Under the pieces are notes generated by a model. That model made no database searches. It saw nothing but the letters and a program-made list of their open reading frames with translations, and was not told where the DNA came from. From assembly GCA_965243625.1 (NCBI GenBank), contig CBDEVI010000002.1, forward strand, positions 1,974,525 to 2,038,524: a DNA stretch of 64,000 nucleotides, read 5' to 3'. Below, one piece after another: positions 22,142 through 29,517 of this stretch; the stretch's first letter is position 1; each line of letters begins with the position of its first letter. Source of the stretch: Chloroflexota bacterium (GTDB taxonomy: Bacteria; Chloroflexota; UBA11872). The translations under genes and the position numbers were made by a program.

Positions 22142-25100
22142 GTGCCGCGAGCAGGCACAATCCGGAGACCAAGGGGCACGAATCTAGGATTCTCTTCCGT
22201 GGCAGTCGACTCCACCTTGTCCGAGGGCATTCGAGAGCTCATACAGCGACTTGAGATCAAGCTCGGACAAGCTCGCGCGATTTCCGGCAAACCGCAGGAG
22301 TTGGCGGGCTTCTGGAACGCCGGCCCGGTGGAGGTCGCTTACGCGCCAAATCCGATTCCGGAGGGCAGCCTGGGCCGCGTGTGGCGCGATAGGCAAGCCG
22401 GCCGCGCAACGGCGCTGCTAGTGATCTGTCCGGGCGAGGCGGACGAACGTCTGGCCGTGGTTGGGCCTAACAGCCAACAGCCAGTAAGGCGGGCGCACGC
22501 GCACGCGCTCATCCAGGAGCTGCTGGACGCCGCTTCGCGCAGCCAACTCGAGGCCGCCCGGCGGCTCGATGCGGCGCTCGCCGTTCTGAATCTGTCCGCC
22601 GTTCCCGGCGTCGTCGCCCACGGATTGCTTACCACCCACTACCTTACGCGCCGGCTGAGCAGCCATCGGCGAGAGCTGAAAGATGCGTCCGCCGAGACCG
22701 AGGGCGTCGGCGCCTGGCGCGCTCTGGTGCAAGCACTCGGGTACAGCCTGCGCACGCGCGAACCGGATTACTACGTGCTGGAGGCGGACGGCCGAGCATT
22801 GGCGGCGCTGCGCGCACTGTCCGAACCGGGGCAGTTTGGGCGCGCGGGCCCGGGCGGCCAATTGCCGGAAGCAGCGCTGCTGGCCAATTGCCAGCGGGAA
22901 AACACGACCTGGGGTTTCCTGGCAGCTGGGGAGCGGCTGCGCCTGTACGCCTCGGCGCCGGAACGCGGATCGGCCATCGACCGCTGGCTGGAGATTGATG
23001 CCAGCCTTGTGCCCGGCGATTGGCGGTGGCTCCTGGGACTGTTCGCTCCGATTTCGCTGAAGCCCGACGGCCTCTTGGATCAGTTCCAGGTCAGGGCCGC
23101 CGATCACGGAACCGAGTTGCGCGAGCGCATCGAGCAGCAAATCCGCGAACGCGCCCTACCCGCCATCGCACGCGGGCTGGGCGAATGGATTGAAGCAAAC
23201 CAAGGCGCTGACCTCTCCGATCCGGCGACCCGCGAAGAGATTCAGGAGGCCAGCCTCACCTTCCTTTTCCGCGTGCTGTTTCTGTTGTACGCGGAGAGCC
23301 TGGACTTTCTGCCGGCCTACGCCGCCGCCTACCAGCCGCATTCGGCTACGACCATCGCGCGTGAAGCGCGCGACAACATCGATCGCCGTGGCGGATCGAC
23401 AACGACATGGGCGCGGCTGCGCACGCTGTTTCACGCCGTCAGTGGCGGCGACGCGGCCTGGGGCGTCTACGCCTACAACGGCGCACTGTTCGCGGCTGAA
23501 GACGGGCTGCCGGGCGCCGGGCTCTTGGAGCACGCCGATGTCCGCGACGACCACATGCGGCCCGCGCTGGTCGCCATCGGATTCGACGACGAGGCGGCTG
23601 ACGCCGACGCGGGCGTGGATTACGGCGGCCTGGACGTGGGTCACCTGGGCGCGATCTACGAGGGCCTGCTGGCGCTCAAGCTCTCGCGCGCTAGCGAGGC
23701 GCTGGGCTGGGACAAACGCCGCAAGCGCTACGTGCCGCAAGCTGAGCCGGGAGAGGACGGCATCGCGGCGGGTCAACTCTTCTTCCAGACGGAAGCCGGG
23801 GGACGCAAGGGCGGCGGCGTCTACTACACGCCGCAGCTGCTGGTGCGGCACCTGGTGAACCACTCCGTGATCCCGGCATTGGACGAGCATTTGCGGGGAA
23901 TCGCGAACCTACGCCAGCGTGACCCAGACGCGGCGTCGCGGCGGCTGTTCGAGTTTCGGGTGCTGGACCCGGCCATGGGCAGCGCCCACTTCCTGGCCGA
24001 CGCGCTGGACCGCATGGCCGACCACTATGCGAGCTTCCTGGCGGAGCATTCCCTTCCCGGCGTTCGCGAGCGGCTGATCGCCCTCCGGCGCGAGGCCGAA
24101 GGGGCCGAACGAGCGGAAGACGCCCAACTCCTGCGGCGGCTGATTCTCAAGCGCTGCATCTACGGTGTGGACCTCTCACCCATGGCGGTGGAGATCGGCC
24201 GCGTGAGCTTGTGGCTCAAGAGCTTCGTGCCCGGCATGGCGCTGAGCTACCTCGGTCACAACCTGCAAACCGGCGACGCGCTGGTGGGGGCAGCCACGCT
24301 CGGAGGCCGACGTGCCGCGGCCCTCCATAGGCGGCCGCAAACCGGCGACGCGTCAGTGCGAGCGGCAGCGCTGGACCCCGTGGCCAGCGTGCTGCCGCTG
24401 GTGCTCACCGAACGGGACTCGCCAATTCTCCGTGCGCTCGAAGTAGCGGCGTCCAAGGCCCGAGAGTTGGCGGACATCGAGGACCGCACCCCCGGAGACG
24501 TGGCTCGCTCGCAAGAGGTCGAGGCTGAGTTGCGCGAGGCCGCCGCCGGAGTGCGTCGGGTGCTTGATCTTTGGACGGCCGAGCCGTTCGGCGTCGAGGG
24601 TGCCCGCCAGGTCCTGGCGCGCAAGTCGGTCGCGAACGTGATCGCGGATGAGGCGTCGGGGAAAGACGCCGAGCTGCTGTCGGCCGCGCAAGCCGAAGCC
24701 GCCCGGCGTCATTTCTTCCACTGGCCGGCAGCCTTTCCCGAGGTGTTTCAGCCCGATGGCGAGCGGCCTGGATTCGACGCGGTTGTGGGCAATCCTCCGT
24801 GGAATGAAATCACTATCGAGGAATTGGCGTTCTACGCCCTCCACGATCCTGGCCTACGAGCCCTCCAGTCGAACGCCGAACGTGAAGCACGGATTATTCG
24901 CCTTGTCCAGCAGTTCCCAGAGTTGCCCAGAGCTTTCGAGCGGCTAAGGGCTCGATTAGAGCAGGAGCGGGCGTTCTTTCGCGCGGAGAACGGATACGTG
25001 GCTCAAGGATCGGGCGATACGGATGTCTACAAACTCTTCTGCGAGCGCTACCGGCATCTTGTGCGAGAAGGCGGGCGCGTTGGCGTGGTGCTGCCCCGCT

Positions 25101-29200: not shown

Positions 29201-29517
29201 CCGCCAGCCAGCGCTGGGCGCTCCAGGACATCCTGCGCTCGGCCGAGGCGCCGGGCGGGCGAGAATTCGAGCAAGCGCACGACGCGCTGACGGTTGCGCG
29301 CCCGGGAATCGTGCTGCGCGACCTGTCCGCAATCCGCCACCGCCAGCAGGACGGGGAGCTAAGCGTCTCCGAGGCTGCAGAGGAGATTGCTAGTGCGGTT
29401 CAGCGGCACGGGCTAAGGCCGATGCAAGTGCCAGACGAACCGGAATCGGAAATCACTCCGGACGACGTGGGCGTGGTCTGTTATCAGATCGTCCTGCCAC
29501 CGGGCTCTGACGCGTGA
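26254..29517 (+). CDS. PLD-family (HKD) nuclease fused to an SNF2/DEAH superfamily-2 helicase (1087 aa)
   Basis: Start overlaps or abuts the methyltransferase stop (GTGACGATG). PLD motif [12 protein letters not shown]...LVTSANLT. Helicase motif I [9 protein letters not shown], motif II [12 protein letters not shown], SNF2 motif III [15 protein letters not shown]. C-terminal motifs V/[41 protein letters not shown]. Confidence 0.85.
   Translation: [1087 protein letters not shown]

Follow-up and report, generated by a model that had tools for sequence, protein, structure and literature searches.

The closest described counterparts of the locus analysed here are methylation-based, motor-driven defences. 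In MANTIS, as a 2026 preprint renamed the Gao_RL system, the N6-adenine methylase MtsC directs both the hemimethylation of 6-bp sites and the restriction of phage and plasmids; MtsC has to be loaded by the AAA+ protein MtsA, and the effector MtsD forms a SauUSI-like dimer with one composite active site of the phospholipase D (PLD) type (10.64898/2026.09.23.753747). Systems centred on DUF499 were described as 'BREX-related' by Rakesh and Krishnan, and in their Type 2, the system later called MANTIS, the helicase has an HKD endonuclease that replaces the N-terminal Tudor domain, giving an HKD-Swi2/Snf2 effector that is accompanied by a DUF499 ATPase, an N6-methylase and DUF3780 (PMC12839542); the same DUF499 operon, with a COG1743 methylase, had been described earlier by Bell et al. 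(PMC7641849). In addition, a table of programmed-inversion loci in Milman et al. 2023 lists, for two genomes, a Cj0031-like Type IIG gene beside a gene for a PLD(cd09178)+SNF helicase (PMC9881135). The locus in question is a two-gene cassette, composed of a DNA methylase gene (gene 1) and a gene for a PLD nuclease fused to an SNF2 ATPase (gene 2), which lies in a stretch of 64,000 nucleotides of a Chloroflexota bacterium (assembly GCA_965243625.1, contig CBDEVI010000002.1, positions 1,974,525 to 2,038,524), hereafter the window.

Set beside these systems, the cassette is probably, to judge by its analogues, a self-contained, two-component, ATP-dependent, Type III-like defence system of the restriction-modification (R-M) type, which by its sequence falls outside DISARM, BREX, MANTIS, Type III and functional Type IIG systems. 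A first-pass annotation, made from the letters of the window alone, had already read it as a Type III-like modification plus PLD-helicase restriction system, and this is the model that the comparative evidence supports best. All the protein motifs quoted at that time were located at defined coordinates in two abutting open reading frames (ORFs), whose translations, of 1371 and 1087 amino acids (aa), contain no interruption:

22142-26257, forward strand: gene 1, an ORF of 1371 aa from a GTG, encoding a gamma-class N6-adenine DNA methyltransferase (MTase) of the Eco57I/PglX/Type IIG-like kind.
26254-29517, forward strand: gene 2, an ORF of 1087 aa from a GTG, encoding a fusion of a PLD (HKD) nuclease and an SNF2 ATPase with a family-specific C-terminal domain.
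26254-26262, forward strand: the gene junction GTGACGATG, an operon-like, coupling-type arrangement.

As had been proposed, gene 2 starts at or over the stop codon of gene 1, either with the GTG that overlaps the TGA of gene 1 by 4 nt or with the ATG at 26260, 2 nt past the stop, and the ATG fits because the NCBI protein identical to gene 2 has 1085 aa. Since the NCBI version of gene 1 has 1352 aa and the homologues begin near residue 20-40, the true start of gene 1 is probably the GTG at 22199 (1352 aa). Although long spurious ORFs are common in a genome of 67% G+C, both are real genes and not chance high-GC ORFs, as indicated by a coding-type G+C content at third codon positions (GC3) of 0.76 in gene 1 and 0.82 in gene 2, together with hundreds of full-length homologues. 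The neighbouring genes have a GC3 of about 0.90, and the lower values of the pair suggest its horizontal acquisition.

Relatives of gene 2 were collected through a scan of one genome per species, which yielded 448 genomes, and the best 80 loci were taken with 10-kb flanks; their hosts belong to Chloroflexota/Dehalococcoidia, several actinobacterial orders, Gemmatimonadota, Binatia and other groups. A homologue of gene 1 is encoded upstream on the same strand in 74 of the 80 loci, or 74 of the 76 informative ones (tblastn, distinct species). Among the other six, four have less than 900 nt of upstream DNA, one (L048) is an N-truncated remnant, and the last (L042) is an orphan that is weighed below. 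Moreover, the more a gene 1 homologue has diverged from the window protein, the more its gene 2 partner tends to have done so as well (Pearson r = 0.82 between the two identities, n = 69 loci), and after clustering of all other ORFs the most recurrent other neighbour occurs in at most nine of the 80 loci. The survey of this exact pair in other genomes, which the first-pass annotation had proposed, hence returns no third conserved gene, and the two genes are a conserved, co-inherited evolutionary unit.

The aligned segments of both genes are no more than about 50 nt apart in 37 of 69 loci (tblastn), and in 23 loci 0.6-7 kb are inserted between them. In about a third of the loci, the genes embedded between the pair, on the same strand, encode DUF5131 and TcmP (three-Cys-motif partner), Uma2 nuclease-like proteins or VapC-like toxins: DUF5131 in L004, L017, L029, L033, L034 and L053 (with TcmP in all but L029), Uma2 in L009, L014, L017, L018, L027 and L068, and the VapC-like toxin in L005, L013 and L016. 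Hma systems reportedly carry embedded genes as well, according to the PADLOC literature, and the insertions within the pair echo them. The flanks of the related loci contain AbiEi/AbiEii, GmrSD, Uma2, patatin, large serine recombinases and relaxases, and elsewhere the pair therefore sits in defence-island or mobile-element contexts. Relatives of gene 2 were also found on 96 of 72,556 plasmids scanned. In a Mycobacterium gallinarum plasmid and a Halorubrum lacusprofundi megaplasmid, the 'hypothetical protein' of 1321-1375 aa encoded directly upstream is a gene 1 homologue; the two partners are 30% and 33-35% identical to the window proteins, and the genes of the Mycobacterium pair overlap by 4 nt. 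In Calothrix, the place of gene 1 is taken by a different methylase, with Eco57I, MmeI_hel and TaqI_C domains. The association of the pair spans bacteria and archaea, and a scan of viral contigs found no relatives.

Some further observations concern the distribution of these genes. One Dehalococcoidia genome has two copies of the two-gene system about 100 kb apart (L062 and L074; contig CBDCDO010000002.1, 318812-342033 and 209392-232613). Many of the closest homologues come from metagenome-assembled genomes of sponge-symbiont-type lineages or bins (RHO, APA, Entotheonella, SAR202, Binatia, Gemmatimonadota and Acidimicrobiia), which hints at a cross-phylum spread within one habitat, the marine sponges. 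A distant SNF2 relative of gene 2 without a PLD domain is present in the Listeria monocytogenes plasmid pLIS25 (L084, 7383-16193), where it forms a block of four genes together with those for DUF4391, an N6_N4 methylase and a helicase-endonuclease resembling Type III Res, a different R-M arrangement with SNF2; the missing PLD domain and the company of DUF4391 and Type III R-M genes ruled it out as a member of the same system.

The product of gene 2 combines the following parts:

26281-26853, forward strand: PLD/HKD nuclease domain (about aa 10-200) with a single HxK...SxN motif, FLHGKTY at 26662-26682 and TSANLT at 26734-26751.
26986-28653, forward strand: SNF2 ATPase core (about aa 245-800), with the Walker A motif GVGTGKT at 27070-27090 and DEAH at 27331-27342.
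27424-27444, 28516-28536 and 28546-28569, forward strand: further motifs of the SNF2 core, TATPVNN, DMPWNPQ and QRNGRVIR, respectively.
28741-29514, forward strand: C-terminal domain (aa 830-1087), family-specific, a candidate partner-binding or DNA-binding module.

The fusion of an HKD nuclease to an SNF2 helicase, as originally read, was recovered by Pfam matches to PLDc_2 (6e-7), SNF2-rel_dom (3e-8) and Helicase_C (4e-17). The nuclease motifs occupy residues 137-143 (FLHGKTY) and 161-166 (TSANLT), and those of the motor residues 273-279 (GVGTGKT), 360-363 (DEAH), 391-397 (TATPVNN) and 765-772 (QRNGRVIR). H139-x-K141, S162-x-N164, Walker A, DEAH, TATP and QRxGR are kept in all 50 aligned homologues. 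The N-terminus thus has the HxK...(G)SxN signature on a PLD fold, in single copy, and matches the nucleases Nuc, NucT, BfiI, NgoAVII and SauUSI, while the motor shows the Walker A, DExH, motif III and motif VI arginines and the two-lobe fold of SNF2 ATPases, and matches SNF2 enzymes including ZorD. The last 258 residues form a domain that was found in this family alone. They retrieved 198 clusters at E<=1e-3 from 1.84 billion representatives searched; in the full-length matches (1,070-1,170 aa) this domain sits C-terminally as well, and most other matches are shorter fragments. Domain searches recognised no modified-base reader in gene 2. The best PADLOC model of gene 2 is 'C3a139, HKD+Snf2' (1.3e-47), followed by DrmD models. 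The name C3a139 was given to a family in a survey of accessory genes near type III CRISPR loci (PMC6546367) and implies no function; a CRISPR link is not seen at the cassette.

Gene 1, on the other hand, has the layout of a large adenine methylase:

22259-23071, forward strand: N-terminal alpha/beta region (about aa 40-310), a restriction-endonuclease-like PD-(D/E)xK fold without conserved catalytic signature.
23072-23671, forward strand: helical domain similar to the one at the N-terminus of PglX, HsdM and MmeI, with LGAIYEGLL at 23645-23671.
23816-24802, forward strand: methyltransferase catalytic core, with GVYYTPQ at 23816-23836, the S-adenosylmethionine (AdoMet) motif I FRVLDPAMGSAHFL at 23954-23995 and motif IV VVGNPPW at 24782-24802.
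25139-26254, forward strand: C-terminal target-recognition region (about aa 1000-1371), the TaqI_C-like part of which starts near VWKGRSF at 25559-25579.

In residues, LGAIYEGLL is found at 502-510, GVYYTPQ at 559-565, motif I FRVLDPAMGSAHFL at 605-618 and VVGNPPW at 881-887, and motifs I (FxVxDPAxGSxHFL) and IV (GNPPW) are invariant in the homologues (18-60 aligned). Pfam assigns Eco57I (5e-20) and, weakly, MmeI_Mtase and N6_Mtase. The best PADLOC model is the Type IIG enzyme REase_MTase_IIG PDLC03620 (2.5e-124, aa 74-720), DrmMI comes second (1.7e-67), and PglX stays far behind the Type IIG model; the NCBIfam BREX models are all far under their cut-offs, with 37 bits against a cut-off of 500 for the PglX models. 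Of the TaqI_C-like C-terminus that had been proposed, the target-recognition domain (TRD) stands, through weaker TRD-level matches at aa 1196-1352 (TIGR02987 and PADLOC MTase_II), but the Pfam TaqI_C family itself is not detected in gene 1; it is detected in the Calothrix counterpart. Block conservation falls from 0.7-0.8 in the MTase core to 0.48-0.59 in the C-terminal region, with aa 1000-1200 the lowest, and gene 1 diverges faster than gene 2, peaking in the TRD, as expected of a specificity subunit.

A single polypeptide with a gamma-class methylase and a TRD, preceded by a restriction-endonuclease fold such as that of BpuSI and MmeI, is the plan of Type IIG/IIL enzymes, yet a competent N-terminal PD-(D/E)xK nuclease is what gene 1 appears to lack. 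On the canonical PD-(D/E)xK strands, neither an acidic residue nor a lysine is conserved when 18, 29 or 60 homologues are aligned, and no lysine reaches 60% conservation in residues 1-327. The nuclease domain of gene 1 is therefore likely inactive, possibly serving as a docking or DNA-clamp domain, and the loss of its catalytic signature makes the PLD-SNF2 protein the likely nuclease. The first-pass annotation had seen no recognisable nuclease domain here, which holds for the catalytic signature and overlooked the degenerate fold; the analogues MANTIS/Gao_RL and SauUSI and an invertible palindrome within gene 1 had likewise escaped it. A sequence search of the PDB returned no close solved relative of either protein.

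With both proteins described, the comparison with known systems becomes more precise. DISARM class 1 brings together the same three activities, an SNF2 helicase (DrmD), a large adenine methylase (DrmMI) and a PLD nuclease (DrmC). However, DISARM requires the DrmA/DrmB(DUF1998) core, which is absent from the cassette and from the related loci, and its DrmC is a separate protein, whereas in the cassette the PLD domain is fused to the SNF2 protein. When the remaining large ORFs of the whole window were compared with Pfam and PADLOC, no DrmA, DrmB, BrxC, PglZ or DUF499 was detected, so that the absence of DISARM and BREX cores noted earlier for the flanks extends to all 64 kb; what these ORFs encode are metabolic enzymes, a GT4 glycosyltransferase, two carbamoyltransferases, a SulP transporter, an IS1595 transposase and one unrelated PADLOC candidate, of the PDC-S11 family. 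Similarly, the neighbour clusters that recur in the 80 related loci, of which the commonest were scanned with Pfam or NCBIfam, include no DrmA/B, BrxC, PglZ or DUF499/DUF3780. The curated NCBIfam cut-offs for DISARM, BREX and MANTIS are all missed by a wide margin. Gene 2 scores 127.5 bits against a cut-off of 610 for DrmD (NF038317) and 27.9 against 133 for DrmC (NF038319), and is thus a canonical member of neither family. Against the PLD anti-phage model NF042964, which we take, by its architecture and length, to represent the Gao_RL effector, it scores 94 bits where the cut-off is 1100, with the helicase C-lobe alone aligned, and PADLOC PLD_Helicase gives 2.8e-13; the domain layout agrees with that of the effector, but these scores do not support orthology. 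A reduced DISARM variant, the other possibility raised in the first-pass annotation, or a reduced BREX was rejected on these grounds, with the core genes never present and the cut-offs missed; the view that the pair lies outside the canonical system definitions is upheld by the same data.

MANTIS resembles the cassette in that a methyltransferase which marks self also directs restriction, and in that the effector has an N-terminal single-HKD PLD domain and a superfamily 2 (SF2) motor, predicted to translocate and to cut between sites. It differs in comprising four proteins, no DUF499 AAA+ loader (MtsA) or MtsB, a small protein of the DUF3780 type, being found in the window or in the 80 loci; in its COG1743 methylase, to be compared with the 1371-aa Eco57I/PglX-type enzyme with a degenerate nuclease fold; and in its effector, since MtsD is described as SauUSI-like and gene 2 is a clear member of the SNF2 family. 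Membership in the Type-2 BREX-related/MANTIS group was rejected, given the lack of DUF499 and MtsB, the other type of methylase and the weak score with the PLD anti-phage model. Type III R-M enzymes (EcoP15I, Mod2Res) share the two-gene mod-res layout, the specificity residing in the methylase and the dependent nuclease subunit with an SF2 motor, and an ATP-dependent long-range communication may by analogy be expected in the cassette. Nevertheless, Mod belongs to the beta class of methylases (N6_N4) and the PD-(D/E)xK nuclease of Res lies at its C-terminus, whereas gene 1 is a gamma-class Eco57I-type enzyme with a fused TRD and gene 2 an SNF2 motor with an N-terminal PLD domain, and the combination of beta-class Mod and PD-(D/E)xK Res that defines Type III is not found in the cassette.

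Gene 1 by itself has the nuclease-fold N-terminus, helical domain, gamma-class methylase and TRD of Type IIG/IIL enzymes (Eco57I, BpuSI and MmeI) and of BREX PglX, but lacks conserved canonical nuclease residues and is nearly always paired with the PLD-SNF2 gene. Gene 2 by itself has the PLD-plus-SF2 layout of the Type IV enzyme SauUSI (PLD, SF2 and TRD); SauUSI, however, is autonomous, works without a methylase and recognises modified cytosines by a TRD of its own, whereas the motor of gene 2 is of the SNF2 type and its C-terminal domain is another one, specific to the family. The combination of SNF2 with a PglX-like methylase recurs in DISARM class 1 (DrmD and DrmMI), BREX type 3 (BrxHII and PglXI) and ARMADA (ArmA and ArmB), always with further core genes. 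The pairing tabulated by Milman et al. has the same gene content and is probably the same or a sister system; it is mentioned in passing and unnamed, and the inversions reported there are larger gene-altering rearrangements, not flips of a 22-bp core (PMC9881135). In a literature search, this table was the sole mention found of the exact gene content, and no other name was found.

A mechanism can be proposed from Type III/ISP enzymes, SauUSI and MANTIS as analogues. Gene 1 would be the sequence reader and modifier, using its own C-terminal TRD, and would have kept an ancestral Type IIG nuclease fold after losing the catalytic signature. Gene 2 would be the effector, in which a double-strand-DNA translocase of the SNF2 type is fused to a single-HKD PLD nuclease; as one HKD motif is half of a PLD active site, two protomers would be needed for cutting, brought together either in a standing dimer, as in Nuc, BfiI, SauUSI and MtsD, or by two motors that meet. 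In the host, gene 1 would methylate its sites, which are probably asymmetric, most likely on a single strand. When unmethylated DNA enters the cell, gene 1 bound to a site on it would recruit or license gene 2, which would then move along or loop the DNA with ATP and finally cleave it. In addition, in the part of the family that includes the window, the flip of a 22-bp core within the recognition region would exchange three residues of gene 1. The contact between the proteins, the hemimethylation, the translocation-coupled cleavage, the defence function and any functional effect of the flip are inferred. As a speculation, the two proteins may touch each other through the degenerate nuclease domain of gene 1 and the family-specific C-terminal domain of gene 2.

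The flipping core belongs to a palindrome in the last quarter of gene 1:

25460-25523, no strand assigned: palindrome of 64 nt, composed of a 21-bp perfect inverted repeat (25460-25480 / 25503-25523) around a 22-bp core (25481-25502).

In the window it encodes TGAASSR-LIPYTELH-ETKQRR, and as RNA it would fold with -64.6 kcal/mol (z = -11.9 vs shuffles). In a scan of all gene 1 homologues, the 15 most extreme cases have their most stable local hairpin at this relative position, 0.80 of the gene. At the homologous site, a perfect stem of at least 15 bp is present in 35 of 71 loci, which all belong to the clade closest to the window, and the palindrome is absent from the homologues of the actinobacterial clade and from the plasmid-borne ones. 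In 33 loci the stem has at least 20 bp, with perfect repeats of 21-27 bp, typically 25 bp, around a 22-nt core. Covariation was examined in a gapless alignment of these 33 sequences, with 25 pairs and 500 shuffles: the arms vary between loci yet stay complementary, as 98.7% of the cells pair, 18 of the 25 pairs have changed on both sides, and 131 cells are compensatory compared with 31 +/- 5 in the shuffles, none of which reaches 131. In a shifted register, pairing falls to 31-53%. The inner 20 pairs contain almost no G-U, which indicates that what is maintained is a DNA inverted repeat and argues against selection on an RNA helix. A terminator or an RNase III site, considered as RNA elements, are disfavoured by the near-absence of G-U pairs and by the flipping of the core. 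No Rfam family matches the hairpin, no further copies of arm or core exist in the window, and a metagenome pattern scan found the palindrome on one contig only. The GTCTC/GAGAC present in the arms was dropped as a recognition site, since it varies between loci and stems from conserved Glu-Thr codons.

The core occurs in two exactly reverse-complementary orientations, A in 16 cases and B in 13, which encode L-x-P-Y-T-E-L-H-E-T and A-x-P-Y-R-E-L-D-E-T, respectively, so that three residues are recoded (L..T..H vs A..R..D). Opposite cores are found in the gene 1 copies of L006 and L007, which are 99.7% identical over 3,961 nt, and in those of L062 and L074, on one contig, which are 94% identical over an aligned segment of 2,008 nt; the core of L021 is opposite to those of L003 and L010 despite identical arms. 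These near-identical genes and identical arms imply that flips of the core have been repeated and recent. The core is located where the gene 1 protein varies most, about 20 residues before the start of the TaqI_C-like TRD. Recoding intragenic invertons have been defined (PMC10028968), and the palindrome has their features, that is, inverted repeats round a coding segment and both orientations in near-identical sequence. The related loci contain no conserved recombinase gene, serine recombinases being present in nine of 80, and the 22-bp spacer is too short for the synapse of a conventional invertase, which makes template switching across the hairpin during replication the more likely mechanism of the flip. 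The flip may toggle gene 1 between two states. A more complete proposal, in which an unnamed, widespread two-protein system has a Type IIG-derived MTase that licenses a dimerising PLD-SNF2 nuclease, and an invertase-independent 22-bp flip that toggles the recognition module between two isoforms, is offered tentatively, being possible rather than probable as a whole.

The copy in the window has some peculiarities of its own, among them a repeat within gene 1:

24265-24372, forward strand: in-frame 72-nt tandem duplication, two copies of about 36 nt that are 78% identical (repeat search).

It inserts 24 aa directly after the conserved HNLQTGDALVG and is present in no homologue, including the 82%-identical P0122; moreover, gene 1 of the window departs from the family consensus at several conserved N-terminal positions. 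The catalytic motifs of both genes are all intact. A promoter/terminator scan gave no signal above background. The flanks are as ordinary as first described, with oxidoreductase and cupin genes: upstream, a Zn-dependent dehydrogenase (21038-22075), a xylose-isomerase-like TIM barrel protein, an RraA-like protein and PhyH dioxygenases, and downstream a cupin (29572-30252, reverse strand) and a GFO/IDH/MocA oxidoreductase.

Other elements were observed in the window. A dispersed intergenic element resembling repetitive extragenic palindromes (REP-like), GGGAGAGGGTTAGGGTGAGGG, has four copies (21010-21030, 30287-30307, 32485-32505 and 40334-40354), compared with 0 expected by chance, and a CCCTCTCCC/GGGAGAGGG hairpin adjoins it at both copies inspected (21010 and 30287). 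Two perfect copies, inverted to each other, enclose the dehydrogenase, the cassette and the cupin gene; this perfect 21-nt inverted repeat around 21010-30307 was ruled out as an element boundary, as it is the dispersed REP-like repeat. About 12.5 kb upstream of the cassette, a low-GC patch holds an ORF of 396 aa (8397-9587, reverse strand) that strongly matches the PADLOC candidate single-gene defence family PDC-S11 (E 1e-68), and between both lies an IS1595-family transposase (14985-15947, reverse strand; DDE_Tnp_IS1595 1e-39 and a zinc ribbon). Three ORFs on the reverse strand, of 959 (45267-48146), 691 (51829-53904) and at least 885 aa (61341-63998), have no Pfam or PADLOC match; a GC3 of 0.83 and 0.81 supports the first and the last as genes, and 51829-53904 failed that coding filter.

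Several explanations compete with a two-component restriction system. Gene 1 could be an autonomous Type IIG enzyme that cuts and methylates, with gene 2 as a separate or auxiliary traveller, for instance a SauUSI-like Type IV or back-up nuclease. The Type IIG REase-MTase model is indeed the best match of gene 1 in PADLOC (2.5e-124), its N-terminus has the restriction-endonuclease fold of BpuSI and MmeI with some conserved acidic residues, the PLD plus SF2 layout of gene 2 is that of autonomous SauUSI, and the genes often inserted between the pair imply that tight translational coupling is not required. However, the 60 gene 1 homologues conserve neither D...(D/E)xK nor a lysine on the canonical strands, the pair is nearly obligate (74/76) and co-divergent (r = 0.82) down to 30% identity in bacteria and archaea, gene 2 has a C-terminal domain unique to the family and no recognisable reader of modified bases, and a modification-dependent nuclease beside an N6-methyladenine methylase would risk self-attack, all of which makes this alternative unlikely. 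About as much doubt attaches to a BREX- or DISARM-like mode of action, in which the methylase marks self and the SNF2 motor blocks replication or strips proteins, the PLD domain having a minor, regulatory or non-DNA role: the recurrence of an SNF2 helicase with a PglX-like methylase in DISARM class 1, BREX type 3 and ARMADA and the second rank of DrmD among the models of gene 2 speak for it, but none of the 50 aligned homologues departs from the HKD residues, genuine DNases are what the domain matches, no additional BREX or DISARM core protein accompanies the pair and every curated cut-off is missed, so that it is a somewhat more doubtful choice still. Finally, it is very improbable that the pair is no defence system but a housekeeping or epigenetic module (phase-variable methylation with an SNF2 remodeller), a repair function or a decaying remnant. 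The metabolic genes that immediately flank it in the window, the candidate flip switch of gene 1, which resembles the phasevarion-type switching of methylases, and the unusual in-frame duplication would fit such a role; its patchy distribution across phyla and domains, including plasmids, a GC3 atypical for the host genome, the defence and mobile-element genes around related loci, the invariant nuclease fused to a motor and the intact ORFs with all catalytic motifs would not.

Some observations also weigh against the two-component restriction system itself. L042 is a true orphan gene 2 locus; this single case is compatible with a targeting that depends on gene 1, and the scarcity of orphans is consistent with a toxic effector that needs its methylase. 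The acidic residues E74, E243, E284 and D286 are conserved in the N-terminal region of gene 1, where a non-canonical nuclease site is possible. The unique 24-aa duplication beside a conserved motif, together with the N-terminal departures from the consensus, could mean that gene 1 of the window, as this particular copy, is impaired. It is also possible that neutral hairpin-templated processes or correction keep and flip the palindrome without any function. Even for the related MtsD, nuclease activity is unreconstituted (10.64898/2026.09.23.753747).

If the two-component restriction system is correct, the cassette would be smaller than every other known defence that combines methylation with a motor (Type III/ISP R-M, DISARM, BREX, Hma and MANTIS), reduced to one reader/methylase and one motor-nuclease, without an AAA+ loader or DrmA/B. 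Another shuffling of methylase, SNF2 and PLD modules would not astonish a specialist; its value is raised by the clean conservation of the pair, its broad distribution, its invisibility to current catalogues and the embedded flip element. Judging by the profile matches obtained here, profile tools would call gene 1 'Type IIG R-M' and gene 2 'helicase-related protein', and such labels would hide a unit that occurs in hundreds of species, on plasmids of archaea and mycobacteria among others. The palindrome, if functional, would represent a new and very compact route to diversify a defence protein. If correct, the two-component model would also make the pair, in comparison with its larger relatives, a tractable system for learning how a methyltransferase hands an unmodified site to an ATP-driven nuclease.

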